Source: Christensenellaceae bacterium
Lineage (GTDB): Bacteria > Bacillota > Clostridia > Christensenellales > Christensenellaceae
Reading direction: 5' to 3'
Length of the DNA stretch: 64,000 nucleotides
Assembly: GCA_036660175.1 (NCBI GenBank)
Contig: JAVXBD010000001.1
Location: 4,511-68,510, forward strand
The position numbers were made by a program, and so were the translations under genes. Shown in pieces: positions 24,268 through 51,237 of this stretch. The notes below the pieces were generated by a model. It ran no database searches, was not told where the DNA came from, and was given only the letters and a program-made list of their open reading frames with translations. Within the stretch, counting starts at the first letter, position 1. Every line of letters begins with the position of its first letter.

Positions 24268-24268
24268 T

Positions 24269-25306: not shown

Positions 25307-25307
25307 G

Positions 25308-26907: not shown

Positions 26908-26936
26908 TTGACAATGGCATTTATTAGGTGTAGAAT
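26908..26936 (+). promoter_or_regulatory. Sigma-A promoter of the SorC-regulator / dehydrogenase-complex operon
   Basis: TTGACA (26908-26913), a 17-nt spacer, then TAGAAT (26931-26936). Confidence 0.55.
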
Positions 26937-26940: not shown

Positions 26941-26983
26941 TTAAATTTACAATATTAATGCGGTTTTACATTTGTAAATTTAA
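26941..26983 (+). promoter_or_regulatory. Nested inverted repeats in the leader (candidate SorC operator or leader hairpin)
   Basis: TTAAATTTACA (26941-26951) is the exact reverse complement of TGTAAATTTAA (26973-26983). Inside it, TTTACA-TT-TGTAAA (26965-26978) is a second palindrome. It starts about 5 nt after the -10. Confidence 0.45.
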
Positions 26984-27002
26984 ACGAGTAAGGAGCAAGC
27001 AT

Positions 27003-27971: not shown

Positions 27972-28003
27972 ATTAAAATATATAAAATGAAAAGGAGTAT
28001 TCT

Positions 28004-28963: not shown

Positions 28964-28977
28964 GGAGGAGTTAATTA

Positions 28978-29958: not shown

Positions 29959-29971
29959 GAGGTACACAGTT

Positions 29972-30913: not shown

Positions 30914-30928
30914 AAAAGGAGTAACGAT

Positions 30929-32674
30929 ATGGGTAATTTTATACTTATGCCAAAACTTGGCATGACTATGACAGATGGAAAAATAATCAAATGGCTAAAA
31001 AATATAGGTGATGATGTAGAAAAGGGCGACTATGTTTTTGAAGTTGAAACAGATAAGACTTCTTTGGAAGTTGATGCTTTATATGACGGTAAACTTTTAA
31101 AAATATTCTTTGATGAGGGCGAAACTGCTCCTATCAACTACCCTGTTGGCTATATTGGTGCCGAGGGTGAAGAGATTCCCCCACTTCCAGAGATGGAAAA
31201 CGCACCAGCAGCAGAAACAGAAACAAAAGCAGCACCGGCAGCGGCTGCTCCTAAGGCTGCTCCCAAAAAAGAAGCAAAACCGAAAAAGAAAATTGATATG
31301 AGCAAATTTGACTATGAGCTTCTTGTGATTGGGGCTGGTCCTGGTGGATATGTTGCGGCAATTCGTGCAGCACAGCTTGGCGCAAAAGTTGCCATTGTTG
31401 AATGTGACGAAGTTGGTGGCACTTGCCTAAACCGTGGCTGTATTCCTACTAAAGCACTTTACACCAGTGCAAAAGTTTTTGGCAAACTCAAACATTGTGC
31501 TGATTATGGATTGAGCGTATCTGGTGCAGGATTTGACTGGAAAAAAATAATGGAGCGCAAAGACGGCATTGTAAAACAATTGACTACAGGTGTTGCGGGA
31601 CTGCTTAAGAAAAACGGTGTTACAATTATCAAAGGCAGAGCAAAAATCACAGATGCAAATACAGTTGAAGTTGACTTAAACGGAACAAAAACAAAGCATT
31701 CTGCTGGATATATTATGATTGCAACAGGTACACAGCCAATCAGCGTACTTAAAAATGTTGATAAGGCTGTAAAGATTAATACCACTGATGATATTCTTAC
31801 AATGCAAACCTTGCCTAAGAGCATGGTTATTGTGGGCGGTGGCGTTATTGGTGTTGAAATTGCAAACATTATGTCATCGTTTGATGTTGATGTAACAATT
31901 TTAGAGCTTATGCCTACTATTATTCCTATGGTTGATGCGGAAATTTCTACCATGTTAAAGAGTAAACTTGTTGCAAAAGGTGTAAAAATCTTAAACGAAG
32001 TAACAGCAAATACCATTAAAAAAGATGGCAAGGACAATGTTTTAGAACTTTCAAATGGTGAAACAATTAAGTGCGAATATATTCTTGAGGCTGTTGGACG
32101 TGGTGTCGTAAGCGATGCTTTTGCAGACATGAAACTCTCTACTTCTCCAAGAGGATTTATCACAGTTGATGACTCTATGTGTTCCAGTGTTGATAGCATT
32201 TATGCAATCGGCGATGTAACGGGAGGCTATATGCTTGCTCACGAAGCATCAGAGCAAGGAATTATTGCTGTTGAAACAATGTTTGGCGAAGCACCAACTG
32301 GCGAAATGTTAATACCATCATGTATCTTTACAGAACCAGAAATCTCCTTTGTTGGCAAAACAGAGCAGCAGGCAAAAGATGCAGGGATTCCTGCTAAAAG
32401 CTTTAAGTTCCCATTTGCAGCTAACGGAAAAGCATTGACATTAGGTGAATCTGATGGATTTGTAAAAGTTGTTGTAGATGAGCGTTATGGCGAGATACTC
32501 GGTGTTCACATTATTGGACCTGAAGCATCCAGCTTAATTCATGAGGCTGTCATGGCTATGAATTTAGAAGCAACTGCACAGTCGGCGGGTCATGTTGTTC
32601 ATGCACATCCGACACTTTCAGAAGCTCTTATGGAAGCATTCTTAGGAGCAAGCACAGGCGCTATACATATGTAA
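30929..32674 (+). CDS. Dihydrolipoyl dehydrogenase E3 with an N-terminal lipoyl domain
   Basis: Residues 1-80 form a lipoyl domain (MPKLGMTMTDGKI ... VETDKTSLEVDA). Then comes an Ala/Pro/Lys linker, then E3 (GAGPGGY, redox disulfide GGTCLNRGCIPTK, C-terminal HAHPTLSE). Confidence 0.9.
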   Translation: MGNFILMPKLGMTMTDGKIIKWLKNIGDDVEKGDYVFEVETDKTSLEVDALYDGKLLKIFFDEGETAPINYPVGYIGAEGEEIPPLPEMENAPAAETETKAAPAAAAPKAAPKKEAKPKKKIDMSKFDYELLVIGAGPGGYVAAIRAAQLGAKVAIVECDEVGGTCLNRGCIPTKALYTSAKVFGKLKHCADYGLSVSGAGFDWKKIMERKDGIVKQLTTGVAGLLKKNGVTIIKGRAKITDANTVEVDLNGTKTKHSAGYIMIATGTQPISVLKNVDKAVKINTTDDILTMQTLPKSMVIVGGGVIGVEIANIMSSFDVDVTILELMPTIIPMVDAEISTMLKSKLVAKGVKILNEVTANTIKKDGKDNVLELSNGETIKCEYILEAVGRGVVSDAFADMKLSTSPRGFITVDDSMCSSVDSIYAIGDVTGGYMLAHEASEQGIIAVETMFGEAPTGEMLIPSCIFTEPEISFVGKTEQQAKDAGIPAKSFKFPFAANGKALTLGESDGFVKVVVDERYGEILGVHIIGPEASSLIHEAVMAMNLEATAQSAGHVVHAHPTLSEALMEAFLGASTGAIHM

Positions 32675-32701
32675 GAAATTACCAAAAGATTTATTAAACA
32701 C

Positions 32702-32732
32702 AAAAAAGCAGGCATCTATTGTCTGCTTTTTT
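32702..32732 (+). terminator. Rho-independent terminator after E3 (symmetric, could act in both directions)
   Basis: AAAAAAGCAG ... CTGCTTTTTT with an 11-nt loop. Confidence 0.65.
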
Positions 32733-32765
32733 GCATGCTGAATAATTTCTTTTAAGCATATAATA

Positions 32766-32792
32766 AAAGAGCTATACTATATAGCCCTTTTA
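32766..32792 (-). terminator. Candidate terminator hairpin after the last URO-D-like gene
   Basis: Stem aaaagagctat / atagccctttt with one mismatch and a 5-nt loop. On the minus strand it is followed by a T-rich run. Confidence 0.35.
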
Positions 32793-32819
32793 CTAATATA
32801 TGTTATAGGAGTAATGAAA

Positions 32820-33959
32820 TTAGTAGTTTCCATATTTTAGACAGGTATCAAAAAATGTCTGAACGTTTTGTGGCGATACATCTGACTGTATATTATGTAT
32901 TGATGCAAAAACAAAACCACCATTGGGTTTAAAATCTAATACACGTTTTTTCGTTTCCTGCTGTACATCAGAAGTACTTCCCTGTGACATAATAACAGGA
33001 TTTGCTCCACCGCCCCAAAAAACGAGGTCTTTACCAAATTCTCTTTTTAGCTTTGCACTATCCATGTTTTTTGCTTGAATCTGCACAGGATTTAAAATAT
33101 CAACCCCAACATCAATCAAATCAGGAATAAACTCATACATACTGCCACAGCCGTGATAATAAACTTTTGCATCAGTATTCGCTTTGATACAATCAACTAA
33201 CTCTCTATGCCGCCACTTAAATATATCTCTATATGTTTTGGGATTAAATAGAGGTCCTGTCTGACTGCCTAAATCATCACCAATCTGCACAACTTGTACA
33301 TATTTTCCGATTTCTTTTAGGCATAGCGGCCAAAAAACCAAATACCAATCCAACACTTTTTGTGCAATACATTCAATTGCTTTTATATCTGCCGCCAAAT
33401 CCATATACATGACTTGAATGCTACGTAACGCATAAATCTGTTCAAAAATTCCCCATATTGGGCTATATAGAACCAATGCCTTATCGGTATGTTCATACAA
33501 ATATTGAACTTCTTCTTTTAAATTTTTTAAACGTGCCTTGTCATTCGGATCTGGCATCTGCCATTTTTTCAACTGTTCATATGTATAATCTTCAAGTACA
33601 CATTTTTCAAAATCATAATATAAACCATGATCTTTAGGGCATCTAAGTTTCGTTCCTAACTGATCATAATATGTCGTATATTTTCCCTCATCAACGATGT
33701 CCAGCGAATAACCGGTGCGTGGTTTTGTATGTATCGGCAAAACATCTGAATGAAATCTATCCAACAATCGCTTGTCTGGGAAAACAATTTGCTGAAAGCA
33801 ATCTTGAATTTTTGTTTCATAATAATCAAACTTATAAAACGCTGCAAGTGCTTTTTCACCATCTCTGTGAATGCTGTCGTGTACCCCACCAAAAGCGATG
33901 GGCACACGATCAGCTTCTTTATGATTTAATGCGCATATTATACGCTCTCGTGAGGTCAT
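32820..33959 (-). CDS. URO-D/MT2-like protein, paralog (last gene of the importer operon)
   Basis: 379 aa. The N-terminus MTSRERIICALNHKEADRVP is almost the same as the paralog at 38725-39849. HGCG motif (KVYYHGCGSMYEF) and GVDILNPVQ block. Confidence 0.7.
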   Translation of the reverse strand: MTSRERIICALNHKEADRVPIAFGGVHDSIHRDGEKALAAFYKFDYYETKIQDCFQQIVFPDKRLLDRFHSDVLPIHTKPRTGYSLDIVDEGKYTTYYDQLGTKLRCPKDHGLYYDFEKCVLEDYTYEQLKKWQMPDPNDKARLKNLKEEVQYLYEHTDKALVLYSPIWGIFEQIYALRSIQVMYMDLAADIKAIECIAQKVLDWYLVFWPLCLKEIGKYVQVVQIGDDLGSQTGPLFNPKTYRDIFKWRHRELVDCIKANTDAKVYYHGCGSMYEFIPDLIDVGVDILNPVQIQAKNMDSAKLKREFGKDLVFWGGGANPVIMSQGSTSDVQQETKKRVLDFKPNGGFVFASIHNIQSDVSPQNVQTFFDTCLKYGNY

Positions 33960-33961
33960 GA

Positions 33962-34930
33962 TCAGTCACTTATTTTCTCTTTTACAAGTTTGTCCAGCAA
34001 TACTGCTAAAACCAATACCATGCCTTTTACAACATATTGATAGAACGGAGGAACACCTGCCTGATTCATGCCTATTCCCAATATAATCAATATGAAGGCA
34101 CCGGCAATTGTTCGTGCTACTGAGCCTTCTCCGCCAAAGAAACTTGTACCACCCATCAGGATGGCAATGATTACATCAAGCTCAAAACCCATGCCTGCTG
34201 TGGCATCACCAATGGTCATATTTGAAGCTCTGATAACTCCTGAGAATGCCGCTGCGCAACCAACCATTGCATACAAAACCCAAACAATCATTTTTACGTT
34301 TATACCTGCAAGTTGTGCTGCCGTTTGATTTCCGCCAATAGCGATTGAATATTTACCAAATATACTTTTCTTCTGCAGTAAGACAAATATCACAACTGCT
34401 GCTATCATCAAAAATAATTGTATAGGAACGCCACCAACATCGCCTCTTCCAAGAAAACCAAAATCTTTTGGAAGATTTCCTTTTACGTACGGTATGGTTT
34501 CTCCACACATTAGTTTTGAAACACCAAGCAGAATATTCATTGTTGCCAGTGTCGCAATAACAGGAATTATTTTTAGTTTTACTACAATAAACCCGTTTAT
34601 AATTCCGATACCAATACCAACAATTGCTACTAAAATAGCCGAGATAGGAGTTGCTATTCCTATCTTACAGAATGTTGCAAACAAAACACCCGAAAATCCA
34701 AGTATGCTGCCTACAGAAAGATCAACATTTCCAGAAAGCATTAACAGTGTTGCAGCCGCAGAGGTAATAACCAGCGGTGCTGCGGTGCGCAAAATATTAT
34801 TTACGCTTGCAATTGATAAAAACTTTGGTGAAAGTGCCCAGAATATAATCACAAATAACAGTAATATGCCATAAACATAAAGATTTTTTACTGCATTTCT
34901 CCATGAAACCTTTTTTATGCTTTGTATCAT
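33962..34930 (-). CDS. Sugar ABC transporter permease (RbsC-type)
   Basis: 322-aa polytopic ORF resembling 251-1282 and 1272-2273. Confidence 0.85.
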   Translation of the reverse strand: MIQSIKKVSWRNAVKNLYVYGILLLFVIIFWALSPKFLSIASVNNILRTAAPLVITSAAATLLMLSGNVDLSVGSILGFSGVLFATFCKIGIATPISAILVAIVGIGIGIINGFIVVKLKIIPVIATLATMNILLGVSKLMCGETIPYVKGNLPKDFGFLGRGDVGGVPIQLFLMIAAVVIFVLLQKKSIFGKYSIAIGGNQTAAQLAGINVKMIVWVLYAMVGCAAAFSGVIRASNMTIGDATAGMGFELDVIIAILMGGTSFFGGEGSVARTIAGAFILIILGIGMNQAGVPPFYQYVVKGMVLVLAVLLDKLVKEKISD

Positions 34931-34966
34931 AGCTATGCCAACTCCTTTGTATAAATTTGAAGTAAT

Positions 34967-35959
34967 TTATTTATTCATTTTGTTTATGGCTGCTCTTTGT
35001 AAGAGTATAGCAGCGATAATAACAATTCCTTTTACAATAACCTGCCATTCAGGTGCTGCGGCAAAGAGGTTTAATGCGTTTTGGAGAACGCCGATGATAA
35101 ATACACCGATTACCATGCCAATAACAGAACCAGAACCGCCCTGCATACTTGTTCCGCCAAGAACAACTGCAACAACTGTATCAAATTCGTATCCGACTCC
35201 AACTTTACAATCGCCAGCGCCTAATTTTGAAGCAAGCAGCACACCAGCAAACCCAGCAATCAAACCACTCATCATAAACAATGTTGAAATTCTTTTGTTT
35301 ACTTTTACACCAGATAGTTCCGCTGCTTTTCTGTTTGCACCGATATAGAAAATTTGTCTGCCAAAGACTGTTTTATTTTGAATAAACATAAATACGAGTA
35401 CAAGTACAATCATTGTAATAACTGGTATCGTAAAGAATTCTGCGATTTCTACCTGCCCAAAAATTCTAAATTCTGGCGGCAAACCGACTTCAATCATTGA
35501 GCCATTTGCAAAAATATAAGCAAGTCCACGTGCAATAGACATCGTACCTAATGTTGCCACAACTGACGCCATACCAAGTTTTACTACCAAAAGAGCATTT
35601 AATGCCCCTATCAGCAACCCTACAAAAGAGGCAAGTATGACTGCAATTGCGAATGGAAGTCCTAAACCGCCATAGCTTGCAGGCTGGCAGAACCACGCAC
35701 ACATAACACCTGATGCACCAATAATAGAACCAATTGATAAATCAAAGTTACCTGTTATCATCAAAAATGTAATGGATACACCCACAATTACCAAAATTGA
35801 CTGCTGCGTAATAATGTTTCTAATATTAGAAGAATTCAAAAAACTCGGTTGTACCAAAGAAATTACAATAATCAGTATTCCCAATATCGCAAGCATAATA
35901 AGGGTGAGCTTTGATTGCTTTGAAAATCTGTTTTTTAAGGTTTTTTCCATATTATTCAC
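34967..35959 (-). CDS. Sugar ABC transporter permease (RbsC-type)
   Basis: 330-aa polytopic ORF. Its start overlaps the ATPase stop by 8 nt. Confidence 0.85.
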   Translation of the reverse strand: MNNMEKTLKNRFSKQSKLTLIMLAILGILIIVISLVQPSFLNSSNIRNIITQQSILVIVGVSITFLMITGNFDLSIGSIIGASGVMCAWFCQPASYGGLGLPFAIAVILASFVGLLIGALNALLVVKLGMASVVATLGTMSIARGLAYIFANGSMIEVGLPPEFRIFGQVEIAEFFTIPVITMIVLVLVFMFIQNKTVFGRQIFYIGANRKAAELSGVKVNKRISTLFMMSGLIAGFAGVLLASKLGAGDCKVGVGYEFDTVVAVVLGGTSMQGGSGSVIGMVIGVFIIGVLQNALNLFAAAPEWQVIVKGIVIIAAILLQRAAINKMNK

Positions 35960-37439
35960 CCCCCGTTACTATATGTATAATCTTTTCACCGTCAATATCT
36001 TTACCATTGTTGATTTCACCTTTTAGTTCGCCGTCATACATCAGTAAAATCCGATCACATAAATTTAAAACTTCTGGCAATTCTGAGCTAAACACCATAA
36101 TCGTCTTTCCGTTCTTAGATAAATCTCGTATGATATTATGTATTTCTTCTTTTGCCCCAACATCAACGCCTCTTGTTGGTTCATCTAACAGTAAAATATC
36201 CGAATCTGAGAACAGGCATTTTGCAAAGACCACTTTTTGTTGATTTCCACCTGACAAAAGCGATACTTCTTTTTCGTCTGTATTGGTAACGATGTTTAGC
36301 ATTTCGATATGCTCTTGAGAAACTTTTAGCTCAGCCTTAGAAGAAATAATACCACTTGAAGCAATTTTTTTCATATTCATCACAGGAATGTTTTGACGAA
36401 TAGACAATATCGAAAAAATACCTTCCGTTCTTCGTTCTTCTGGAGCAAGTGCAATTCCGCTTTCTATGGCTTCCGTAGCATTTTTAAACTTTACTTCTTT
36501 ATTATTGATAAGCATCTTGCCTTCAAATTGATCAATTCCATATATTGTGTTTGAAAGCTCTGTTTTTCCAGCACCTACAAGTCCATATACACCAATGACT
36601 TCGCCTTTAAAAACATCAAAAGAAACATTTTTCAATTTTTTGTTTGTTATATTTTTTAATTCAATAATTTTTGTATTATAATCAACCTTATTGGGTATGT
36701 ATTCTTCTACAACTGTTTTTCCGAGTATCATTTTTACAAGCTCTGTTCTATCTTTCACTTCGGAAATACTCTTTGTTTCTATATGCTTTCCATCTCTTAA
36801 AACAGTAACATAATCACCTATTTCAAATATTTCGTCTAATCTGTGAGAAATATAGATCACAGTAACATTTTTCGCTTTTAGTTCATTAATTATTTTAAAG
36901 AGTCTGTCAATTTCAGATTCTGATATGGCGGCAGTTGGTTCATCCATAATGATGATTTCCGCATCAGTAGCAATTGCTTTTGCGATTTCTACAATTTGTT
37001 TTTTTGCAACACTTAACTTAGAAACAAGAGTTTTAATATTGATGCTTGGTTCAATGCTCTTCAACGTTTCTATGCTTTTTCTTACTTGTTCATCTTTTTT
37101 AAAAAAACCGAGTTTTGTTTTTTCCATTCCAAGCGAAAGATTTTCTTCTACCGTTAGCTGATCAACAACATTTAATTCTTGAAACAAGGTGCTAATTCCA
37201 GACTCACGTGCTTCTTTTGTGCTGCTTGCAGAAAACTCTTTTTCATTTAAATAAATAATACCGCTTGTTCGAGGCTGTGCACCTGTCAAGATTTTAATAA
37301 GAGTCGATTTTCCAGCACCGTTTTCTCCCAACAAACAATGAACAGTATTTCTTTTAATATCAAAACTGACATCGTTTAACGCTGTCACGCCAGGAAATTT
37401 TTTTGTGAGGTTTTTAAATTGTAATATATGATCGTCCAT
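35952..37439 (-). CDS. Sugar ABC transporter ATP-binding protein, duplicated ABC domains
   Basis: Walker A motifs GENGAGKST and GLVGAGKTE, signature LSGGNQQK, Walker B IIIMDEPT and ILLLDEPTRGVD. Confidence 0.9.
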   Translation of the reverse strand: MDDHILQFKNLTKKFPGVTALNDVSFDIKRNTVHCLLGENGAGKSTLIKILTGAQPRTSGIIYLNEKEFSASSTKEARESGISTLFQELNVVDQLTVEENLSLGMEKTKLGFFKKDEQVRKSIETLKSIEPSINIKTLVSKLSVAKKQIVEIAKAIATDAEIIIMDEPTAAISESEIDRLFKIINELKAKNVTVIYISHRLDEIFEIGDYVTVLRDGKHIETKSISEVKDRTELVKMILGKTVVEEYIPNKVDYNTKIIELKNITNKKLKNVSFDVFKGEVIGVYGLVGAGKTELSNTIYGIDQFEGKMLINNKEVKFKNATEAIESGIALAPEERRTEGIFSILSIRQNIPVMNMKKIASSGIISSKAELKVSQEHIEMLNIVTNTDEKEVSLLSGGNQQKVVFAKCLFSDSDILLLDEPTRGVDVGAKEEIHNIIRDLSKNGKTIMVFSSELPEVLNLCDRILLMYDGELKGEINNGKDIDGEKIIHIVTGGE

Positions 37440-37468
37440 TTACCTGTCTCCCCTCAAATCATATTTTA

Positions 37469-37498
37469 TGCGGCAGGGATTTTGCAGCCCCTACCGCA
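37469..37498 (-). other. GC-rich intercistronic stem-loop between the binding-protein and ATPase genes
   Basis: tgcggcaggg (37469-37478) pairs with ccctaccgca (37489-37498), with a 10-nt loop and one G-U pair on the transcript. No clean U-tract follows. Confidence 0.55.
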
Positions 37499-37514
37499 CA
37501 AACATATTATTTTT

Positions 37515-38654
37515 TTATTTACCTGCTTTTGTTAAATCAGCTGTTGATTTATATTCATCTGTCAGCCATTTTTGAGCTTCGTCAACAGGCATTGTCCAAT
37601 AGTCAATTTCTTTATCTGTGCATTCAACCGTTAATTTCTCATCAGGATTGATTTCTCCTGTATAAGCTTTCATGATTGTATCTAATTTTGTTTGAGCGTT
37701 CTCCATTGGAGTAAGTCCCATTGTTACTTTGAAAGATGATGATGGATCATAAATCAACATCAATTCTGCTTCTGTTGCGTCTGTTCCAACAAGAATTTCT
37801 GTTTCTGGAACGCCATCAACAGCTTTTCCTCTTCCAGCTTCTTGAAGTGCAGGCCATATTGCCAATGAATAATCAGATGCTGCGCCATAGAAGATGTTTG
37901 TTTCTGGACAAGCTTGGATAATATCTTGAGCAACTTTGTAACCTGTGTCACGTGTGCCGCCGCCATCAACGATCATGCCTTCTTTAGCATCAGGAGCAAC
38001 GCTCTTGATTCCTTCAATAAACGGACCTGTTCTCATTTCTTGAACTGTTGGGTTATCAATGTAGTCAACTACACTGTATACAATAGGTTTGTCAGGATGG
38101 AATTCAATCCATTTTTCAGCTGAAACTTTACCCATTTGGAAAGCACTTTCCGCTTCGTTGATTGCAACGAAAGGAACGTTGTTTGGTGTTTCTAAATAGA
38201 ATGTTATGATTGGAATCCCAGCAGCTCTTGCCGCATCAATACCAGGTACTACAGATTCTGCTTCATAAGAATGAAGAACGATCATGTCTACGCCTTCAGC
38301 AATTAACTGATCTAAGTTTGATACAATTGTAGGTTGCTCAAATTTTCCGTCAAGTACTTTTACTTCTGCACCATACTGCTCTTTTGCTAACTGTGTAAAC
38401 CAGTCAACATCAGCTTGATGGTAGCCATTAGCTAAAGTAATCGGAATTTTACCAATAACGAGTCCCTCAGGAATCTCTTTTGGAGCATCAGCAGCAGGAG
38501 CTTCTGTTGCTGCGTCTGCAGCGGGAGCCTCTGTTGCCGCTGGAGCATCTGTTGCTGCTGGAGCAGCAGGAGCTGCAGGTGCACAAGATGTACCTACTGC
38601 GACTACACCAAGAATCATTACGACACAAAGTGCAATACAAATAATTTTTTTCAT
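37515..38654 (-). CDS. Sugar ABC transporter substrate-binding lipoprotein (type I, RbsB-like) with an Ala/Pro-rich tether
   Basis: Signal peptide plus lipobox (VAVGTSC). Then an APAAPAAPAATDAPAATEAPAADAATEAPAADAP linker, then a PBP1 fold sequence. Confidence 0.85.
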   Translation of the reverse strand: MKKIICIALCVVMILGVVAVGTSCAPAAPAAPAATDAPAATEAPAADAATEAPAADAPKEIPEGLVIGKIPITLANGYHQADVDWFTQLAKEQYGAEVKVLDGKFEQPTIVSNLDQLIAEGVDMIVLHSYEAESVVPGIDAARAAGIPIITFYLETPNNVPFVAINEAESAFQMGKVSAEKWIEFHPDKPIVYSVVDYIDNPTVQEMRTGPFIEGIKSVAPDAKEGMIVDGGGTRDTGYKVAQDIIQACPETNIFYGAASDYSLAIWPALQEAGRGKAVDGVPETEILVGTDATEAELMLIYDPSSSFKVTMGLTPMENAQTKLDTIMKAYTGEINPDEKLTVECTDKEIDYWTMPVDEAQKWLTDEYKSTADLTKAGK

Positions 38655-38724
38655 GTTTGTTCCTCCTTAATAATTTGGGTAATTCCCATTTGTCATTATT
38701 TTATTTTTGGCATCTGCCAAAACT

Positions 38725-39849
38725 TTATTCATATTTACCATATTTTTTAATAAACTCGAACATCTTTATGAAATTTTCAGGTGGTGTATCTGGCTGCACA
38801 TGGTTAGCAGTAGAAATAATATATCCACCGCCTGGTGCAAATGCATCAAGACGCTTTTTTACTTCTTTCTCAACATCATCAACATTGCCGATTAGGGCTT
38901 GCTGAATATCAATGCCGCCATGCAGCACAACATCATTACCAAAAGTTTCTTTGATTTTTTTAGAATCCATACCATTTGCCAGTGGCTGCAATGGATTTAA
39001 AACATCTACACCCATTTCAATAAAATCAGGTATATAGTCAAATATTGCTCCGCAGGAATGCAAAAATATTTTCATATTCGGAAATTTTTTCTTGATTGCT
39101 CCAAACATTCTCTCAAAAGGTTTTTTGAAAAACTCTCTGAAACAATCGGGTGAAATAAACGGAGCTTCTTGTGTACCAAAATCCGAAGTAAATTCTACCC
39201 ATTCAACATAAGGTGCGATTGGTTCTAAATAATATAAATTCAGTTCTGTTAAAAATTCTTCGATTTTTTCGATTAAATTATGCGCAAATGTCTTGTTAAT
39301 GTATAAATCCATAAAAAAGTCTTCTGCTCCACGCATGAATTGTCCAAGATCAAAAAATTGTCCTGAAGAAGCAGATGTTGCAGTAATTGCACAGTCTGTT
39401 TGCTCATAGTATTGTTTTGCACGCTCCGCAAGTCCTGCAATTCTGCCTGGATCCTTTGCATTGGGCCATTTATAGTTTGCCAATGCTGATTCATCAGCAT
39501 CTTTTAAAGGATGAAAAGCAACCGTTGGATAGTCGCCTGTCAATAGCCTGCCAATCCCCAATTCATCAATCAAATATCCGTTTTCATTTGTATAAGATTT
39601 AAAATTCTGTGGTTTTCCAATTGTAATGTGTCTAAAATCGCATCCAAAGATGTCGCTCATCCGATAATCTTCATATTCGGTAGCTGTACCAGGTCTAATC
39701 AGCTCTCCTAATTCTGTGAAATTCATCTCTTGCGCAAGTTTCTTATAGAATCTTGCATCCAGTCTTGATGCACTTCCCCACATATCAACAGGCACTCTAT
39801 CGGCTTCCTTGTGATTTAGTGCAAGGCGTACTCTTTCTCTACTTGTCAT
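38725..39849 (-). CDS. URO-D/MT2-like protein, paralog
   Basis: 374 aa. MTSRERVRLALNHKEADRVP N-terminus, HSCG motif (IFLHSCGAIFDY), GVDVLNPLQ block. AAGGAG ribosome-binding site. Confidence 0.7.
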   Translation of the reverse strand: MTSRERVRLALNHKEADRVPVDMWGSASRLDARFYKKLAQEMNFTELGELIRPGTATEYEDYRMSDIFGCDFRHITIGKPQNFKSYTNENGYLIDELGIGRLLTGDYPTVAFHPLKDADESALANYKWPNAKDPGRIAGLAERAKQYYEQTDCAITATSASSGQFFDLGQFMRGAEDFFMDLYINKTFAHNLIEKIEEFLTELNLYYLEPIAPYVEWVEFTSDFGTQEAPFISPDCFREFFKKPFERMFGAIKKKFPNMKIFLHSCGAIFDYIPDFIEMGVDVLNPLQPLANGMDSKKIKETFGNDVVLHGGIDIQQALIGNVDDVEKEVKKRLDAFAPGGGYIISTANHVQPDTPPENFIKMFEFIKKYGKYE

Positions 39850-39876
39850 AATGTTCTCCTTAAGCTATATAAAAAA

Positions 39877-41412
39877 TTAAAATTTTTGCTGAAATTTTGA
39901 AATTTTATCGTATACGCCACCATTGGCTAAACTTTCATATGCGTCACAATAGATGGCATACATTTCATCATAAATGACAACATTTTTTGAAATCGGCTCA
40001 AATCTCTTTGCGGGTTTTACCATTGCTTTAGCTGCTTGTACAACATTTTCGTATACACCAATTCCCACAGCGGCACACATTGCTGCACCCAAAACAGCTG
40101 CATCTTTTACGGCAAGTGTTTCCACTGGAATATTGTACATGTCTGCCTGTATTTGATTCCAAATATCAGATTTTGTTGCACCGCCAATAACTCTTCCTAC
40201 GTTGACATCAAATCCATTTTTTCTGATTGCAGTAATGATGTCACGCATCTCCATTGTAATTCCTTCCATACAGGCTCTTGCCATGCAAGCCCTATCATGC
40301 GCAAGCGTTAATCCTAAAAACGCACCACGTGCATTAGAATTCCATCGAGGAGCTGCAGAACTTGCAAAATACGGCATCATAATCAGCCCTTTTGCACCAA
40401 CGGGTACAGTTTCTATCATTTTATTTAAATCTTCAAAGATATTTGTGTGATTATTTTTTGACTGAAAGTTTTCAAGTGCTGCAATTTCTGTTGAAAACCA
40501 TTTGTAAACAACCGCAGCAGCATTTTGAAGCCCTTCAAATTCCCACATACCATGCAGTGCATGATTTGTTACCATGGTATTGCCCGTTGCATCTCTGTAT
40601 TTTGAATTCAGCAATGCTGTTGCAAGGCCGCCAGTACCAAGGGATGCTGAAACAATTCCACTTTCTACAACACCAGCACCGATTGCTGCACTGTTTTGGT
40701 CACCAATTCCAACACAAATGGGTGTTCCTTTTGCAAAAACACAGTTGCTTGTTACTTCACCAATTTTTGTACCAGACTGCATCACTTTAGGCAGTATTTT
40801 TTTGTCAATTTCAAACTTAGAAATCAACTCACTGCTATATTTACAATTATCGGTTTCCCACAATCCCCAAAAGGCTGCATCTGGCTCATCTGTATAATAA
40901 TCATCTGCGCCTAATTGCTTTAAGATATAATCCTGTACTTGACAAACTTTTTTTGTTCTTTGCCAAATTTGTTGCTCATATTGACGAACCCACATGATTT
41001 TAGGCAGAATCCAACAAGTGTTCAGCGGTAAACCAGATATTCTATAAAACTCATCTTTACCAAATTTTAAATCAAGTTCTTCAACTTGCTCACTTGCACG
41101 GTTATCCATCCATGAAATCATCTTGATGGGTTGGTCGTTTTCATCAATAAAAATGCACGAACTTCTTTGTGCAGAAATACTAATTGCAGCAATTTCTTTT
41201 GCATCAATCTGACTGGCAGCCATAGCAAGTTCACTTGCTTTTAAAACCGCATTAAAAAGTGTTTGCGCATCCTGCTCTACCCAGTTTGGCTTCGGGTAAA
41301 TACAAGGATACTCTACATATCCGCTGGACAGCGCATTTCCTTCAAAATCAAATAGTATTGTTTTTGTGCCAGTTGTGCCGACATCAATTCCCACCACATA
41401 AGCTTTTTTCAT
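39877..41412 (-). CDS. FGGY-family carbohydrate kinase (xylulokinase/LsrK/gluconokinase class; substrate unknown)
   Basis: N-terminal ATPase motif GIDVGTTGTK, central GIGDQNSAAIGAG, C-terminal GGATKSDIWNQIQADM. 511 aa. GGAGGG ribosome-binding site. Confidence 0.88.
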   Translation of the reverse strand: MKKAYVVGIDVGTTGTKTILFDFEGNALSSGYVEYPCIYPKPNWVEQDAQTLFNAVLKASELAMAASQIDAKEIAAISISAQRSSCIFIDENDQPIKMISWMDNRASEQVEELDLKFGKDEFYRISGLPLNTCWILPKIMWVRQYEQQIWQRTKKVCQVQDYILKQLGADDYYTDEPDAAFWGLWETDNCKYSSELISKFEIDKKILPKVMQSGTKIGEVTSNCVFAKGTPICVGIGDQNSAAIGAGVVESGIVSASLGTGGLATALLNSKYRDATGNTMVTNHALHGMWEFEGLQNAAAVVYKWFSTEIAALENFQSKNNHTNIFEDLNKMIETVPVGAKGLIMMPYFASSAAPRWNSNARGAFLGLTLAHDRACMARACMEGITMEMRDIITAIRKNGFDVNVGRVIGGATKSDIWNQIQADMYNIPVETLAVKDAAVLGAAMCAAVGIGVYENVVQAAKAMVKPAKRFEPISKNVVIYDEMYAIYCDAYESLANGGVYDKISKFQQKF

Positions 41413-41454
41413 TTTTTAAAGCCCTCCGTATATATCGTAATACAACAGCCTTTG

Positions 41455-42612
41455 TTAAATCGCTTTTTCTCTCATTTCAACAATTGTTTCAAGTAATGCA
41501 ACAACATTTTCAAGAGGTACATCGTTCATAATTTCTTGTGCCGGCGCTATAATATGGCCACCGCCTTTTCCAAGAATTGTAATTGCTTCTCTTGCCATCG
41601 TTTTTACTTCTTCTGGTGTTTTGGTCGGCAGTGTTTGTGTATCAATTCCGCCCCAGAAAACAAGATCTTTACCGTATTCACGTTTTAAATATTTTAAATC
41701 ATTACATGGCTGTACAGGTTCCCAGCCATCAAGGCCAATATCAATTAGTTGAGGCAGGTAGTCAATCATTGCTCCACATGAGTGCATAATGATGTACTGC
41801 CCATTCTTTTTATATTCAGAAAACAATCTCTTATAATGAGGCAAAATTTGTTCAGTAAACATTTTAGGTGAGAAAAATCCACTGATTTGCATACCTAAAT
41901 CATCACCATGATGAGCAAACTTAAAGCCCATATCGGACTTCACTTGTGCAAGTTTCATTCTATAATCCGTTACTTTTTCCATCAAGCACGAACATAACAT
42001 TGGATTGCCTGCCATTTCTGTCATAAATCTTTCCCAACCCATCAATGCGTAAGAACGCTCATAGGTTGCAAAATATCCAGAAGGAATGATGCACATATCT
42101 CCAGCAACACCATCTTTATCTCTTTCATACCATGTTAAGTTTTGAGGATCTAATGGATCTGGTATTTCATAGTTCATGATAGCATCTTCAAAAGACATAT
42201 CCATATATTTTGTTAATCTTTCAGGCAGAACTTTTCTAGCAGCCTTGTCTTTTTCTTTGTCGCCCATCAGCACACCATAATCTGTAAAGAATCCATCCTC
42301 ACCAATTACAATACCAAGACCCCAACGATCGTATACATGATTATTTTCAAAATCTGTATATACATATCCTTTTTTTGCAAGTTCGGTCATCATTTCTGGA
42401 TCATTTCTCCAAAAAAGAGGAATATCATCTGTTGCATAAGTAAATGCAATATGATTTTCTAAATAATCATCGAGCTGGTCTGGGCTGTCAAGACCTAACG
42501 CTTCACTAATTGCTTTGTCACGTGTTCTGTCGGAAAAGGAAATTTGACTTGGCAAATAGTCGATATTACGTTTTTCAAATAGTGCCAGTACTCTGTCCGC
42601 TTTTGTCATCAT
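41455..42612 (-). CDS. URO-D/MT2-like protein, paralog (first gene of the operon)
   Basis: 385 aa. HSCG motif (YIIMHSCGAMIDY) and a GLDGWEPVQ block. AGGAGG ribosome-binding site 9 nt upstream. Confidence 0.7.
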   Translation of the reverse strand: MMTKADRVLALFEKRNIDYLPSQISFSDRTRDKAISEALGLDSPDQLDDYLENHIAFTYATDDIPLFWRNDPEMMTELAKKGYVYTDFENNHVYDRWGLGIVIGEDGFFTDYGVLMGDKEKDKAARKVLPERLTKYMDMSFEDAIMNYEIPDPLDPQNLTWYERDKDGVAGDMCIIPSGYFATYERSYALMGWERFMTEMAGNPMLCSCLMEKVTDYRMKLAQVKSDMGFKFAHHGDDLGMQISGFFSPKMFTEQILPHYKRLFSEYKKNGQYIIMHSCGAMIDYLPQLIDIGLDGWEPVQPCNDLKYLKREYGKDLVFWGGIDTQTLPTKTPEEVKTMAREAITILGKGGGHIIAPAQEIMNDVPLENVVALLETIVEMREKAI

Positions 42613-42893
42613 AATAAAATACCTCCTAATATAGTGCTTACTCTCATTTCATCATAAAAGTTCTTGTTCATAATTTATAGTTTAAAGATAATATTATAAA
42701 ATTATACTGCTAAAATTATATTTTTGTAAAATATGGTTCTTCTTTGCTTACTATTAGAATATAATTTTGCAAAGCATATGTCAATAAATTTAAGGTTTCG
42801 GATGCACATTTGTTCATATATATGCCTATTCGTAATATACAAGACTTAATATAACAATTTTCCATGTATATTTATCAAATAATTTACGGAAAC

Positions 42894-42922
42894 TTGACAT
42901 TATCGTTCTATATTTATATAAT
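42894..42922 (+). promoter_or_regulatory. Consensus sigma-A promoter of the second SorC regulator
   Basis: TTGACA (42894-42899), a 17-nt spacer, then TATAAT (42917-42922). Confidence 0.65.
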
Positions 42923-42928
42923 ATTAGT

Positions 42929-42940
42929 GAACATTTGTTC
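42929..42940 (+). promoter_or_regulatory. Palindromic candidate operator GAACA-TT-TGTTC at the predicted transcription start
   Basis: It sits 6 nt after the -10. An imperfect second copy (GCACA-TT-TGTTC) is at 42804-42815. The core ACATTTGT is shared with the leader palindrome at 26965-26978. Confidence 0.45.
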
Positions 42941-42966
42941 GGATAAGTTTTGAAGGAGATTATAAA

Positions 42967-43926
42967 ATGAGCAGTACCTATTCCAGAGAGCAACTTGTTA
43001 AAGTTTCAAAACTTTACTATTTAGGAAATATGAGCCAAGAGGACATCAGTAAGATTATGAATATTTCACGTCCAATGATTTCTAGAATGCTAAGTATGGC
43101 ACGTGAACGTAAAGTAGTAGAGTTTAAAATCAATTCCTCTCCCTCATTATATTCTGAAATGTCAAAAAAAATACAGGATTTTTACAATTTAAAATATGTT
43201 TATGTAGTGCCATCATCTTTTTCTCAAGAAGAATCAAAACTTGAAGTTGCAAAGAAAGCTGCTGATTTTTTAAATCTACAGTTGAAAAATGATATTGTGA
43301 TTGGCTGTGCATGGGGTACAACAATTGACAGATTTGTACACGCATTCTTGCCCGAAAAAACAATTTCTGGTGCATCGGTTATGCAATTAACAGGCAGCCT
43401 CAATGCGCATATTGTAGAAACAGATGGCAGAGAACTCGCAAAAGAGCTTGCAACGAAATTAAATGCACAATTATACACGCTTCAAACGCCGTTGATTGTT
43501 GGAAATCCACTGCTAAAGCAGCTCTTGATTGATGAACCCGAAACAAGAAGACAATTTGATATGTTTAGAAATATTGACATCGCTTTTGTTGGTGTTGGCT
43601 CCAGTAAGCCTGAAAACAGTGTTTCCTATAAAGCTGGATATATTACAAAAGAAGAAGCACAGGTTTTGGAGGATATGGGTGCAGGTGCCGATATTTGCGG
43701 ACATCGTATTACAAAAAATGGTAATAAGGTCCAGACAATACTAACGGACAGAGTTATTTCAATTGATCTTGACACGCTCAAGCAAATACCGTTGGTTGTT
43801 GCACTTGGTGCTGGCGAGGACAAAGCCCCTACCATTGTTGCAGGAATACGTGGAAAATACATAGATGCAATTATTATTGACGAGCTTGCTGCGATTTCAA
43901 TTATAGAAACTGAAAAGATGATATAA
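42967..43926 (+). CDS. SorC/DeoR-family sugar-binding transcriptional regulator (LsrR/CggR/DeoR class)
   Basis: HTH (YYLGNMSQEDISKIMNISRPMISRMLSMARERKVV) plus a SorC effector domain (GCAWGTT ... VGVG ... ALGAGEDKA). It is divergent from the importer/kinase operon. Confidence 0.85.
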   Translation: MSSTYSREQLVKVSKLYYLGNMSQEDISKIMNISRPMISRMLSMARERKVVEFKINSSPSLYSEMSKKIQDFYNLKYVYVVPSSFSQEESKLEVAKKAADFLNLQLKNDIVIGCAWGTTIDRFVHAFLPEKTISGASVMQLTGSLNAHIVETDGRELAKELATKLNAQLYTLQTPLIVGNPLLKQLLIDEPETRRQFDMFRNIDIAFVGVGSSKPENSVSYKAGYITKEEAQVLEDMGAGADICGHRITKNGNKVQTILTDRVISIDLDTLKQIPLVVALGAGEDKAPTIVAGIRGKYIDAIIIDELAAISIIETEKMI

Positions 43927-44002: not shown

Positions 44003-45367
44003 TTATTTTCTTTCATCAATTTTTACATATTCACGTGCATCAAAAATGCTCTTATATGCCGGTCTAATAATTTTGCCAGCATTAAGCAATTCTTCAATTC
44101 TGTGCGCACTCCACCCAGCAATACGAGCAATCGCAAAAATTGGCGTAAACAGTTCGGTGGGCAGATTGAGCATACTATAAACAAATCCGCTGTAAAAATC
44201 AACATTTGCACTGACGCCTTTATAAATCTTGCGCTCTTTTGCAATGACCTCTGGTGCACATTTTTCAACTATGGAATACAGCTGAAATTCCTTTGTTAAT
44301 CCTTTTTCATCGGACAGACTCTTGACGAATGCTTTAAAAATATTCGCTCTTGGATCGGAAAGTGAATAAACTGCATGTCCCATGCCATAAATCAGCCCAG
44401 CTTTATCAAATGCCTGCTTATTGAGCAAAGAAACAAGATACTGTTTGACTTCCTCTTCGTCTGTCCAATCCTTAATATTTTTCTTCATATCATCAATCAT
44501 TTGCACTACTTTTATATTAGCGCCACCGTGCTTTGGACCTTTTAAAGACCCGAGCGATGCTGCAACTGTTGAATAGGTATCTGTACCTGAGGATGAAACA
44601 ACTTTTGTTGTAAAAGTGGAGTTGTTTCCGCCTCCATGCTCTGCGTGCAGAACCAATGCTACATCTAATATTTTTGCTTCCAGTTTTGTATATTTACTAT
44701 CAGGACGGAGCAAATACAGAATGTTCTCCGCAGTCGATAAATTCGGTTGCGGCGAATGAATAAATAGGCTTTGTCCATCATGATAATGTTTAAAAGCTTG
44801 ATAGCCATATACAGACAGTAGCGGAAACAACGCAATGAGTTCGATTGATTGGCGCAGTACATTTGGAATACTAATGTTATCTGCTTTTTCATCATATGAA
44901 TAAAGTGTCAGTACACTTCTTGCAAGCGTATTCATCATGTCAGAGCTAGGTGCTTTCATAATAATATCTCTAACAAAACTTGTTGGAAGCGTTCTATAAT
45001 GCGCAAGCAACGCTGTAAAATCTTCTAATTCATCTCTATTTGGCATTTCGCCCATCAATAAAAGATATACCGTTTCTTCAAACCCAAATCGTCCTTCACG
45101 GATAAAACCATCTACAATATCTTCAATGTTGATACCACGATAATAAAGACGGCCTTCACAGGGTATCATTTCGTCCCCTTGTTCAACAAAGGAAACAATA
45201 TCTGATATTTTTGTTAAACCTGCTAAAACACCTTTTCCGTTTATATCACGCAATCCACGTTTAACCTGATACTTATTATAGAGTGCTGCATCAATTTGAT
45301 TATTCGCATTACAGCGTTCTGAAAGTGCTGCAATCTCTGGTGTGATTTCTGAAAACTTATCTGACAT
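44003..45367 (-). CDS. Citrate synthase (classical Si-type family)
   Basis: LHAEHGGGNNSTF, GMGHAVYSLSDPR and NVDFYSG blocks. I chose the start at MSDKFSE with a GGAGG ribosome-binding site. The ORF-track extension to 45469 lacks a ribosome-binding site. Confidence 0.9.
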   Translation of the reverse strand: MSDKFSEITPEIAALSERCNANNQIDAALYNKYQVKRGLRDINGKGVLAGLTKISDIVSFVEQGDEMIPCEGRLYYRGINIEDIVDGFIREGRFGFEETVYLLLMGEMPNRDELEDFTALLAHYRTLPTSFVRDIIMKAPSSDMMNTLARSVLTLYSYDEKADNISIPNVLRQSIELIALFPLLSVYGYQAFKHYHDGQSLFIHSPQPNLSTAENILYLLRPDSKYTKLEAKILDVALVLHAEHGGGNNSTFTTKVVSSSGTDTYSTVAASLGSLKGPKHGGANIKVVQMIDDMKKNIKDWTDEEEVKQYLVSLLNKQAFDKAGLIYGMGHAVYSLSDPRANIFKAFVKSLSDEKGLTKEFQLYSIVEKCAPEVIAKERKIYKGVSANVDFYSGFVYSMLNLPTELFTPIFAIARIAGWSAHRIEELLNAGKIIRPAYKSIFDAREYVKIDERK

Positions 45368-45660
45368 ATGACATAATCCTCCTTTTTTCTGTGTTGATTT
45401 TCTATCGTATACGTAAAACAAATGAAAAGCATTTCCATAAATACTTTCGACGTACATCGTGATTTGCAAATTAGAACTTAAATCTTATATCACAAAATCA
45501 AACTTATTTATACAATAAACTTTTGTGTAAATAATCTCAACTTATATTATACAATAAATCATACTTTTTGTAACGCTTTTTTTAATATTTAGCAATTTTA
45601 TACAAATTATTTTGTGTATAATTTCTGTTTTATATATAAATTAAAAAAATAAATGCGAAA

Positions 45661-45706
45661 CAAAAAAAGCGTTCATTTTATACAATTAGATAAAATAAAC
45701 GCTTTT
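45661..45706 (-). terminator. Terminator hairpin after the malic enzyme gene
   Basis: 14-bp stem with one mismatch (RC of 45667-45704), followed on the minus strand by TTTTT. Confidence 0.5.
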
Positions 45707-45723
45707 AAATTTTAAAGCTTACC

Positions 45724-46896: not shown

Positions 46897-46924
46897 AATA
46901 TCCTCCATTTATTTTTAGTATTAT

Positions 46925-48007: not shown

Positions 48008-48035
48008 TTGACAAATGATTCATTCATGATAAAAT
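48008..48035 (+). promoter_or_regulatory. Candidate sigma-A promoter of the DMT transporter gene
   Basis: TTGACA (48008-48013), a 16-nt spacer, then TAAAAT (48030-48035). The -35 is flanked by the 8-bp inverted repeat GAATCATT / AATGATTC. Confidence 0.4.
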
Positions 48036-48085
48036 TATTAACTGTACGCACTTCCGTTTTACTTTGTATTAGAAAGGTTCTCAGC

Positions 48086-50210: not shown

Positions 50211-50219
50211 TTTATTCTC

Positions 50220-51125: not shown

Positions 51126-51186
51126 AGAGTACTCCTTTAAAATATCATATACTTAATTTAACACTTTTTTTGATTAAAAGAAAGTA

Positions 51187-51225: not shown

Positions 51226-51237
51226 TCTAAATAAACC

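Follow-up and report, generated by a model that had tools for sequence, protein, structure and literature searches.

Apart from uroporphyrinogen decarboxylase (HemE), the characterised members of the UroD superfamily are all corrinoid-linked methyl or alkyl transferases, and an operon context with a sugar importer and a sugar kinase is not described for any characterised member (PMC10418091, PMC13222342). Several divergent superfamily paralogues per cluster, with a function that is still open, occur in the type 1 mlp clusters of anaerobes, which encode Mlp2 and Mlp3 (~30% identical to coenzyme M methyltransferases), a corrinoid protein and Ram/RACE (Kountz & Balskus, PMC10418091). Of the described sugar-uptake systems, the lsr system for autoinducer-2 (AI-2; LsrR, LsrK, LsrACDB, LsrF, LsrG) has a SorC-family regulator divergent from an operon for an FGGY kinase and a CUT2 importer, and the ulaABCDEFG and yiaK-S clusters (lyxK, sgbH, sgbU, sgbE) have an FGGY kinase followed by three small processing enzymes. 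Demethylation of 6-O-methyl-D-galactose is carried out in aerobes by an O2-dependent cytochrome P450 monooxygenase (PMC6292453). The DNA analysed here is a stretch of 64,000 nucleotides (hereafter the window) of a Christensenellaceae metagenome-assembled genome (MAG; assembly GCA_036660175.1, contig JAVXBD010000001.1). It contains an operon of three URO-D-fold genes (U1, U2 and U3), an FGGY kinase gene (K) and the genes of a CUT2 ABC importer, divergent from a SorC-type regulator, and beside it a cluster for a pyruvate dehydrogenase (PDH)-like E1-E3 complex headed by a second such regulator, SorC2 (Table 1). This is a sugar catabolic operon built of enzyme clades without assigned function; no characterised pathway matches it, and there is a real chance of new chemistry. 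An earlier note, made from the sequence alone, had proposed an undescribed system and could name no characterised carbohydrate pathway with such a gene set, and none was found in the literature; neither was a paper on UroD-fold genes in sugar operons or an anaerobic sugar demethylase (many subscription journals were not covered), the P450 being the sole carbohydrate demethylase retrieved.

Families were assigned with Pfam profiles and with NCBIfam equivalog models and their cut-offs. U1, U2 and U3 are true paralogues with pairwise identities of 21-33%, and all three score above the URO-D gathering score of 23.9 bits (Table 1). The MtaA/CmuA model TIGR01463 (cut-off 235 bits) gives 55.5 bits for U1, 49.1 for U2, 32.6 for U3 and 72.7 for U4, a fourth paralogue in the window, and the hemE model TIGR01464 (cut-off 303 bits) gives 28.7 bits for U2 and no match for U1 and U3. 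The PDB sequence search with U1, U2 and U3 returned nothing nearer than MtaA, HemE and MetE (best E=3e-6, MtaA). Structure prediction, which the earlier note had proposed, was run for U1 and U2 and gave confident AlphaFold (AF2) models (predicted local distance difference test, pLDDT, 95) of URO-D/MtaA-type barrels; in Foldseek they match MtaA, HemE and the MetE barrel best, at 9-19% identity, with template-modelling (TM) scores of 0.55-0.76 (0.58-0.76 for MtaA), E=1e-16 to 1e-9 and 13-19% identity against the MtaA and HemE barrels. The top match of U2 is MtaA (4ay7), and U1 matches HemE and MtaA at 13-17% identity. Because the NCBIfam scores lie far under the cut-offs and the PDB and Foldseek matches are distant, U1, U2 and U3 are placed within the UroD superfamily and outside every characterised family, with no solved or named relative nearer than ~18% identity, in agreement with the earlier note, which called them uncharacterised. 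HemE, judged unlikely there too, was rejected for all three (29 against 303 bits; LYASG in HemE where U2 has LHSCG in the profile alignment), and no heme genes were seen among the annotated genes of the window (48008-63988 was not scanned). A true MtaA identity was rejected as well (33-55 against 235 bits; third zinc cysteine replaced).

The His-x-Cys metal motif of MtaA is the feature that the U proteins share with the corrinoid methyltransferases (the MT2 proteins MtaA, MtbA and MtsA; the MT1 proteins MtvB, OdmB, VdmB and MtoB; CdmB/CmuA), along with the TIM-barrel fold. The motif H-x-C-G is kept in all five paralogues (U1, U2, U3, U4 and a fifth gene past the window edge), and LHSCG of U2 aligns in the profile alignment with the zinc ligands LHICG of MtaA. 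The predicted site of U2 comprises His264-x-Cys266 and Asn349-His350, within a family of 43 invariant residues among 71 orthologues; H269, C271, H355 and N356 are invariant in the U3 family; and U1 has a MetE-like set, His277/Cys279/Glu298/Cys303, taken from the residues conserved in 56 orthologues. The third zinc ligand of MtaA, a cysteine, aligns with Asn349 in U2 (His350 adjacent), with His-Asn in U3 and with Gln359/Glu360 in U1, and this replacement, together with the 13-19% identity, separates the U proteins from the corrinoid methyltransferases. In the structure alignment they are 17-19% identical to MtaA, which also sets them apart from the Mlp paralogues; the window differs from the mlp clusters further in that corrinoid protein and RACo are absent and in that it has a sugar importer, an FGGY kinase and E1-E3.

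Orthologues of U2 at 50% identity or more are found in Christensenellaceae, Oscillospiraceae, Treponema, Synergistaceae and Dethiosulfatibacter, and those of U1 in Clostridia, Phycisphaerae, Actinobacteria, Spirochaetales and Humimicrobiaceae; those of U3 are confined to uncultured Christensenellaceae, with relatives at only 41-48% identity in Actinobacteria, Atribacteraceae, Spirochaetes, Halanaerobiales and Planctomycetota. An exhaustive search at E<=1e-30 yielded 770 clusters of U2-like proteins (50% identity clustering). U2-like homologues at a greater distance (34-41% identity; Asgard archaea and other Christensenellaceae) stand in different contexts, and no inference was based on them. 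In the Asgard loci (L071-L083, Thor-/Hermodarchaeota; 34-36% identity) the neighbours are a PfkB kinase, a 2-keto-3-deoxy-6-phosphogluconate (KDPG)-aldolase-like protein, a glycyl-radical enzyme and an aminotransferase, and a corrinoid protein lies ~7 kb off in four of them.

For the conservation of the gene linkage, a U2 profile scan of species-representative genomes provided 80 loci and a U1 profile scan of metagenome contigs 80 further loci; open reading frames (ORFs) were called and classified by phmmer against the window proteins and selected neighbours. Linkage was counted in 28 non-redundant U2 orthologue loci with at least 3 kb on each side and in 29 U1 loci flanked by 4 kb or more. 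A K orthologue or a phosphotransferase system (PTS) lies near U2 in 24 of the 28 loci and a CUT2 ABC importer or PTS in 23, with K immediately adjacent in 10; the U1 loci contain K (13/29), an ABC importer (14/29) and U2 (11/29). The layout of the window, i.e. the SorC regulator followed by U1, K, U2, binding protein, ATPase and two permeases, recurs in L004, L005, L028, L048 and L087, in all of which a SorC orthologue adjoins U1/U2, as it does in many PTS-type loci; the order is shuffled in L035, L039, L042 and L045. FGGY kinase and CUT2 ABC importer genes are linked to U1/U2 in Bacillota, Planctomycetota, Actinomycetota, Spirochaetota and Humimicrobiales. These genes, E1-E3 included, quite likely belong to a single catabolic system that is conserved and uncharacterised. 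U3 stands outside its conserved part, being absent from the operon of the closest relative (L004, Christensenella), and U3 homologues elsewhere stand with LacI, a RhaM-type mutarotase and other sugar ABC importers (L085, L086). The earlier note's expectation of a linkage conserved in relatives thus held for U1, U2, kinase and transporter and failed for U3. A family of 400-430-aa proteins without Pfam, NCBIfam or PDB sequence match also recurs in URO-D sugar loci of different organisms (L088, 3728-5011; L173, 12458-13657; L086, 16010-17470; L108, 582-1946; L051, 528-1772).

The E1-E3 cluster had been overlooked when the URO-D proteins were taken for the only downstream enzymes: a SorC-regulated set for E1αβ, E2 and lipoyl-E3 (28004-32674) adjoins the operon. 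It is present in 7 of the 29 U1 loci and is linked to U1/K/U2 in L004, L035, L042, L088/L096, L092, L094, L109 and L119, in the orders K-U2-E1a-E1b-E2-U1 (L035, Planctomycetaceae), U1-K-U2-E1a-E1b (L042, Actinomycetota) and ABC-U1-K-E1a-E1b/E2 fusion-lipoylE3 (L092); in L004 it lies on the opposite side of the operon, and the pairing of SorC2 with E1-E3 is found there too. A U3 homologue stands within an E1/E2/E3 cluster in L084. On the basis of this co-localisation in distant phyla, E1-E3 is probably the downstream module of the operon, and since the ties to U1/K/U2 persist in rearranged orders, which speaks for a common function, the whole island is better drawn as 26958-43926, from SorC2 through the SorC regulator. 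Like acetoin and pyruvate dehydrogenases (AcoABCL, PdhABCD), the complex has a heterodimeric thiamine pyrophosphate (TPP)-dependent E1αβ, an E2 core and an E3; E1β (NF006667, 407 bits, cut-off 321) and E3 (TIGR01350, 528 bits, cut-off 409) pass their models. It differs from those complexes in its SorC-type regulator, in its genomic tie to U1/K/U2 in several phyla, in an E1α below the PDH cut-off (TIGR03182, 353 against 394 bits; best PDB match human PDH E1α, 224 bits) and in the position of its lipoyl domain, which sits on the N-terminus of E3 and not on E2; all NCBIfam E2 models are under cut-off. The same 582-aa lipoyl-E3 fusion directly follows U1-K-E1 in L092, where E1β is fused to E2 as well (639 aa; 12615-16299).

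A substrate could not be assigned through K or the binding protein, for which every equivalog model is under cut-off. K has both FGGY_N and FGGY_C and scores 337 bits against XylB (TIGR01312, cut-off 380), 265 against GntK (cut-off 649), 240 against LsrK (NF008187, cut-off 528) and 150 against the E. coli-type XylB model NF011601 (cut-off 912). Its best PDB match is the annotated gluconate kinase 3gbt (203 bits), and the LsrK structure 5ya0 (150 bits) ranks under gluconate, glycerol and xylulose kinases. In the binding protein, the lipobox VGTSC of a lipoprotein signal (…VAVGTSC followed by APAAP…) precedes an Ala/Pro/Thr linker; the best PDB match of this protein is a ribose-binding protein (E=2.5e-9), and it scores no more than 30 bits against the XylF, RhaS and RbsB models. 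The importer has the domains of the CUT2 type (Peripla_BP_4, double ABC_tran, BPD_transp_2) and attains no substrate-specific equivalog (ATPase best with AraG, 500 bits against a cut-off of 689; both permeases below all cut-offs). Both regulators fit the SorC/DeoR type (N-terminal helix-turn-helix and PF04198), and neither reaches the B. subtilis DeoR equivalog (SorC regulator, 194/420 bits; SorC2, 204/420). Annotation by the Prokaryotic Genome Annotation Pipeline (PGAP) gives only generic names for binding protein and regulator and, for K, 'FGGY family carbohydrate kinase'.

With its SorC-family regulator, FGGY kinase and CUT2 importer the locus shares the parts list of lsr, and the earlier note had on these grounds seen an Lsr-like layout. 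On that reading AI-2/4,5-dihydroxy-2,3-pentanedione (DPD) would be captured by the binding protein and phosphorylated by K, phospho-DPD would be the signal for the SorC protein, and the place of LsrG/LsrF would be taken by the URO-D proteins and/or E1-E3; as a methyl diketone, phospho-DPD might in principle be cleaved by a TPP-dependent E1 to acetyl-CoA. The likeness does not reach beyond the parts list. Besides LsrK, the models of LsrR (NF011947; SorC regulator 116/486 bits, SorC2 140/486), LsrA (365/586), LsrC (147 and 121 for the two permeases, against 388) and LsrD (122 and 100, against 500) are far under cut-off, LsrB has no match at E<=1e-3, and K is no nearer to LsrK than to glycerol, gluconate and xylulose kinases. 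LsrF thiolase and LsrG isomerase, whose absence had been stated correctly, are missing from 26958-43926, all genes of which fall in other families, and sister loci have a PTS and in some cases a lactonase, an iron-containing alcohol dehydrogenase (Fe-ADH) or UlaE, which do not fit AI-2. Membership in the Lsr family was rejected on the NCBIfam scores, and an AI-2/DPD pathway of this kind is highly improbable.

The broad XylB model as the nearest for K, and ABC parts similar to Ara/Rbs/Xyl systems, would fit an ordinary xylulose- or ribose-type pentose operon in which the URO-D genes are passengers (heme or general methylotrophy) and the PDH cluster is housekeeping. The earlier note had allowed for kinase and binding protein being such ordinary components, and the specific models, all under cut-off, do not bear this out. 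The URO-D genes, moreover, lie inside the operon with gaps of 2-70 bp, U1 and U2 remain with K and the transporter across phyla in shuffled orders, E1-E3 genes are interleaved with U1/K/U2 in L035, L042 and L092, and the low hemE score and the lack of heme genes noted above speak against a role in heme synthesis. We therefore regard a plain pentose operon as very unlikely.

A PTS of the Gat/Asc family (IIB, EIIC-GAT, IIA; PF03611) replaces the ABC importer in 19 of 49 U2 loci. K is common in ABC-only loci (10/15) and rare in PTS loci (5/19), from which we infer that ABC importer plus K is interchangeable with the PTS and that U2 acts on a phosphorylated compound. Two more genes are nearly always present in the PTS-type U2 loci, one for a second GatB-like IIB (~97 aa) and one for a cysteine desulfurase resembling NifS (TIGR03402, 455 bits, under the cut-off of 531), as found in L001, L003, L009-L012, L018-L024, L047, L051, L061, L062 and L065.

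Some of the PTS-type loci provide a genomic link to corrinoid chemistry. Interleaved with the U2/PTS genes of L018 (Treponema), L009 (Ca. Heteroruminococcus) and L065 are those for a cognate corrinoid protein (TIGR02370, 204 bits), an MtaA/CmuA-like protein (334-336 aa and 148-154 bits in L018/L009), RACo and DUF2284, and the same set of neighbours stands by U2 in L001, L013, L015 and L061. The U2 orthologues in these corrinoid operons (Treponema, Oscillospiraceae) are 52-57% identical, and the corrinoid genes of these loci make up a full set for methyl transfer in which U2 is the only candidate for the substrate-specific partner. L101 has a partial corrinoid protein immediately upstream of U1. 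The earlier statement that there is no corrinoid protein and that MT2 methyl transfer is unexplained is thus correct within the window and does not hold for the U2 orthologues of Treponema and Oscillospiraceae.

The best model overall, which we put forward tentatively and as somewhat short of probable, is that a sugar or sugar acid with a modification, probably a methyl group, is catabolised and that U2 dealkylates a phosphorylated intermediate. The retained H-x-C-G motif, the corrinoid-linked chemistry of the characterised superfamily members other than HemE and the loci that combine U2 with corrinoid genes speak for alkyl transfer. The substrate would most likely be O-methylated, possibly S-alkylated or of another alkyl form, and may fall in the L-xylulose/keto-gulonate/lactone group. 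It would be imported and then phosphorylated by K, with the Gat/Asc-family PTS performing both steps in the sister loci. U2, with its predicted His/Cys/His metal site, would strip the alkyl group from the phosphorylated compound as the MT1 of a corrinoid-dependent system, the carrier of which would be encoded outside the window in the source genome. U1, with a MetE-like His/Cys/Glu/Cys site, may act as the partner, in a thiol or alkyl-transfer step, or catalyse a second conversion, and U3 may be a lineage-specific addition for a related sugar. The unmasked phosphosugar would enter central metabolism, and the PDH-like complex would convert the resulting 2-oxoacid or acyloin to acyl-CoA and NADH. 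For U2 taken alone, a function as alkyl-transfer or demethylating enzyme has, in our estimate, slightly less than an even chance.

Several observations weigh against demethylation by U2. The third zinc ligand of MT2, a cysteine, is not conserved in U1, U2 or U3, and the invariant Arg, Asp, Glu, Trp and His residues of U2 would equally suit a phosphosugar-converting enzyme. Although the 64-kb window has four URO-D paralogues, it gave no match to hidden Markov models (HMMs) of the corrinoid protein, RACo or DUF2284, and none of the three was seen past its left edge in the sibling MAG; within 10 kb, a corrinoid protein is present in 6 of 21 PTS-type U2 loci and in no ABC-type locus (0 of 14; Fisher p = 0.06). 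The model assigns no specific role to the 2-oxoacid/acyloin dehydrogenase complex. Lastly, an MtaA-like enzyme and a corrinoid protein can suffice as a two-protein system, MtsA/MtsB being an example, and U2 therefore need not be an MT1. No cobalamin riboswitch was found in the window.

Much of the same evidence could be accommodated by phosphosugar chemistry without a corrinoid, in which U1-U3 would be metal-dependent TIM-barrel isomerases, epimerases, decarboxylases or lyases derived from the UroD/MetE fold; we consider this a serious possibility, if on balance a doubtful one. The U proteins would either fill the scheme isomerase - FGGY kinase - zinc epimerase/aldolase (araBAD, fucIKA, rhaBAD) or replace UlaD/E/F-like steps of an L-xylulose/3-keto-L-gulonate/sugar-lactone pathway, and with E1-E3 cleaving a 2-oxoacid or acyloin product to acyl-CoA, no aldolase would be needed. 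The absence of corrinoid genes from the window and from every ABC-type locus is as expected here, and the adjacency of K and U2 resembles kinase-isomerase pairs. His/His/Cys is also the ligand set of LuxS, a sugar carbonyl-migrating enzyme; on the other hand, cysteine as a metal ligand is unusual among sugar isomerases, and conversion of a sugar is not known for any enzyme of the UroD fold.

The gene content of sister loci adds substrate clues in favour of such chemistry. U1 has an SGL/SMP-30 lactonase as its immediate neighbour in seven loci and an Fe-ADH in five; a true UlaE/SgbU L-ribulose-5-phosphate 3-epimerase (302 bits, cut-off 272) stands between URO-D genes in L088/L096; L001 has a K orthologue next to a DUF386 (YiaL-like) gene and the DctP binding protein of a tripartite ATP-independent periplasmic (TRAP) transporter; the Lachnospiraceae loci add a class II ketose-bisphosphate aldolase, TIM and YjbQ; and the sister PTS is of the Gat/Asc family. 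These clues loosely suggest an acidic or L-series sugar (keto-gulonate, L-xylulose, lactone), without identifying the substrate. They also bring the sister loci close to the Ula/Yia systems, which share the Asc/Gat-family PTS, lactonase, UlaE/SgbU epimerase and YiaL-like/TRAP context, whereas in the window the three processing enzymes are of the UroD fold, and Ula/Yia have no PDH-like complex or corrinoid linkage. Homologues of UlaD/SgbH, UlaE/SgbU and UlaF/SgbE are absent from the 26958-43926 island, and the window operon has no lactonase or dehydrogenase either. The interleaving of corrinoid protein, MT2 and activase with the U2/PTS genes in three lineages is left unexplained by corrinoid-independent conversions. 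A bolder version, which we think unlikely, has the UroD-fold proteins as a new class of (phospho)sugar-converting metalloenzymes. They would make an imported sugar ready for C-C cleavage, and a lipoamide-dependent TPP complex dedicated to this pathway would carry the cleavage out. Sugar would be turned into acyl-CoA and a phosphorylated aldehyde without an aldolase, by a route widespread among anaerobes of the Bacillota, Planctomycetota, Actinomycetota and Spirochaetota, and the PTS/corrinoid loci would represent a variant in which a methyl group is taken off first.

The locus and its relatives reveal three deep UroD-superfamily clades without assigned function, each spread over several phyla and all located in sugar-uptake operons of anaerobes from gut, rumen, termites and sediment. 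Should U2 and its relatives indeed demethylate sugars, the system would be an anaerobic counterpart of the P450 sugar O-demethylase, likewise unmasking a methylated sugar for catabolism with an unrelated fold and cofactor and without the dependence on O2 (PMC6292453), and would explain the use of methylated plant and algal sugars by anaerobes, e.g. 4-O-methylglucuronate (a guess). If instead corrinoid-independent conversion is true, it would add a new reaction class to the UroD fold and a role in sugar breakdown to a PDH-like complex. Either way, the gene set is testable, with small soluble enzymes and a binding protein that can be screened, and cultivable carriers are Faecalicatena fissicatena KCTC 15010, Clostridium sp. 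MCC353 and Clostridium sp. chh4-2.

The coordinates of the island are collected in Table 1. For the operon and its regulator, the ORF list and Pfam confirmed the nine ORFs, strands and domains that had been reported, as well as the tight co-directional spacing (-8 to 75 bp) and the divergent regulator; from U1 to U3 the intergenic distances are 42, 27, 70, 75, -8, 36 and 2 bp.

Table 1. Features of the SorC2 to SorC regulator island and the evidence for their assignment
Feature	Position	Strand	Evidence or remark
SorC2, second SorC/DeoR-type regulator, heads E1-E3 unit	26958-27971	+	Pfam Sugar-bind 210 bits
E1 alpha, TPP-dependent, PDH/acetoin-dehydrogenase type	28004-28963	+	Pfam E1_dh 289 bits
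E1 beta	28978-29958	+	Transket_pyr + Transketolase_C
E2 acyltransferase core without lipoyl domain	29972-30913	+	E3_binding + 2-oxoacid_dh catalytic domain only
E3 dihydrolipoyl dehydrogenase, N-terminal lipoyl domain	30929-32674	+	Biotin_lipoyl (residues 5-73) + Pyr_redox_2 + Pyr_redox_dim
Convergent gap between E3 and U3	32675-32819		Likely terminators: two hairpin/T-run elements AAAAAAGCAGGCATCTATTGTCTGCTTTTTTG, AAAAGAGCTATACTATATAGCCCTTTT; read by eye, without confirmation by the scanner
U3, third URO-D-fold paralogue, last operon gene	32820-33959	-	Pfam URO-D 70 bits; 2-bp gap to permease
ABC permease 2, CUT2 type	33962-34930	-	BPD_transp_2 121 bits
ABC permease 1, CUT2 type	34967-35959	-	BPD_transp_2 160 bits
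Double-cassette ABC ATPase	35952-37439	-	Two ABC_tran stretches, 186 bits
Hairpin, 15-bp stem, directly after binding-protein gene, before ATPase gene	37465-37502	-	Terminator-like scan
Substrate-binding lipoprotein	37515-38654	-	Peripla_BP_4 86 bits
U2, URO-D-fold, core conserved member	38725-39849	-	Pfam URO-D 89 bits
Kinase K, FGGY carbohydrate kinase	39877-41412	-	FGGY_N 181 bits + FGGY_C 112 bits
U1, URO-D-fold, first operon gene	41455-42612	-	Pfam URO-D (PF01208) 83 bits
Divergent control region, U1/SorC regulator	42613-42966		354 bp
SorC/DeoR-type regulator, divergent from operon	42967-43926	+	Pfam Sugar-bind (PF04198) 190 bits

Promoter-like sequences are present at the heads of the transcription units: a perfect TTGACA-17-TATAAT for the regulator at 42894-42922 (+), TTTACA-18-TATAAT for the operon at 42730-42701 (-; 11/12 consensus match), and TTGACA-17-TAGAAT for SorC2 at 26908-26936. 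Two exact copies of ACATTTGTTC lie in the U1/SorC gap, at 42806 and 42931; as the motif is not enriched across the window, it is only a candidate operator. A search for an operator common to both SorC promoters gave AT-rich chance matches only. The hairpin at 37465-37502 is a possible mRNA-stabilising or attenuating element; hairpins at such positions are typical of differential mRNA stability in ABC operons.

The window contains a second CUT2 ABC importer operon (251-4979, -), the first gene of which is the fourth URO-D paralogue, U4 (3879-4979), with HSCG kept. In the sibling MAG (L173, 11106-14959), further genes of this operon lie past the window edge, namely those for a binding lipoprotein and a 399-aa protein without Pfam match, and the fifth URO-D gene. 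With these additional genes, URO-D-fold genes are repeatedly paired with sugar importers in the source genome, and never near a corrinoid protein within the window and the sibling-MAG edge. The second operon is divergent from genes at 5227-10900 (+) for an AraC-type response regulator, a Cache histidine kinase, a Peripla_BP_4 sensor-like protein and an SBP_bac_1 protein.

On the far side of the island, just past the SorC regulator, genes for citrate synthase, malic enzyme and an Ldh/Mdh-family dehydrogenase are located at 44003-47869 (-), for which no conserved linkage with the system was found. A pair for a LuxC-like acyl-CoA reductase and a LuxE-like acyl-protein synthetase lies at 10904-13284 (-), with no other lux genes seen nearby, and a cluster of six tRNA genes at 13411-13971 (-). 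The region 23148-26551 (-) comprises a phage-type integrase (23148-24218), followed by an aldo/keto reductase, a 153-aa ORF and pyrroline-5-carboxylate reductase, and a single tRNA gene (26684-26754, -) lies just upstream of the SorC2/E1-E3 unit. The AT skew switches sign at ~22-26 kb, which may mark an integration boundary near the island.

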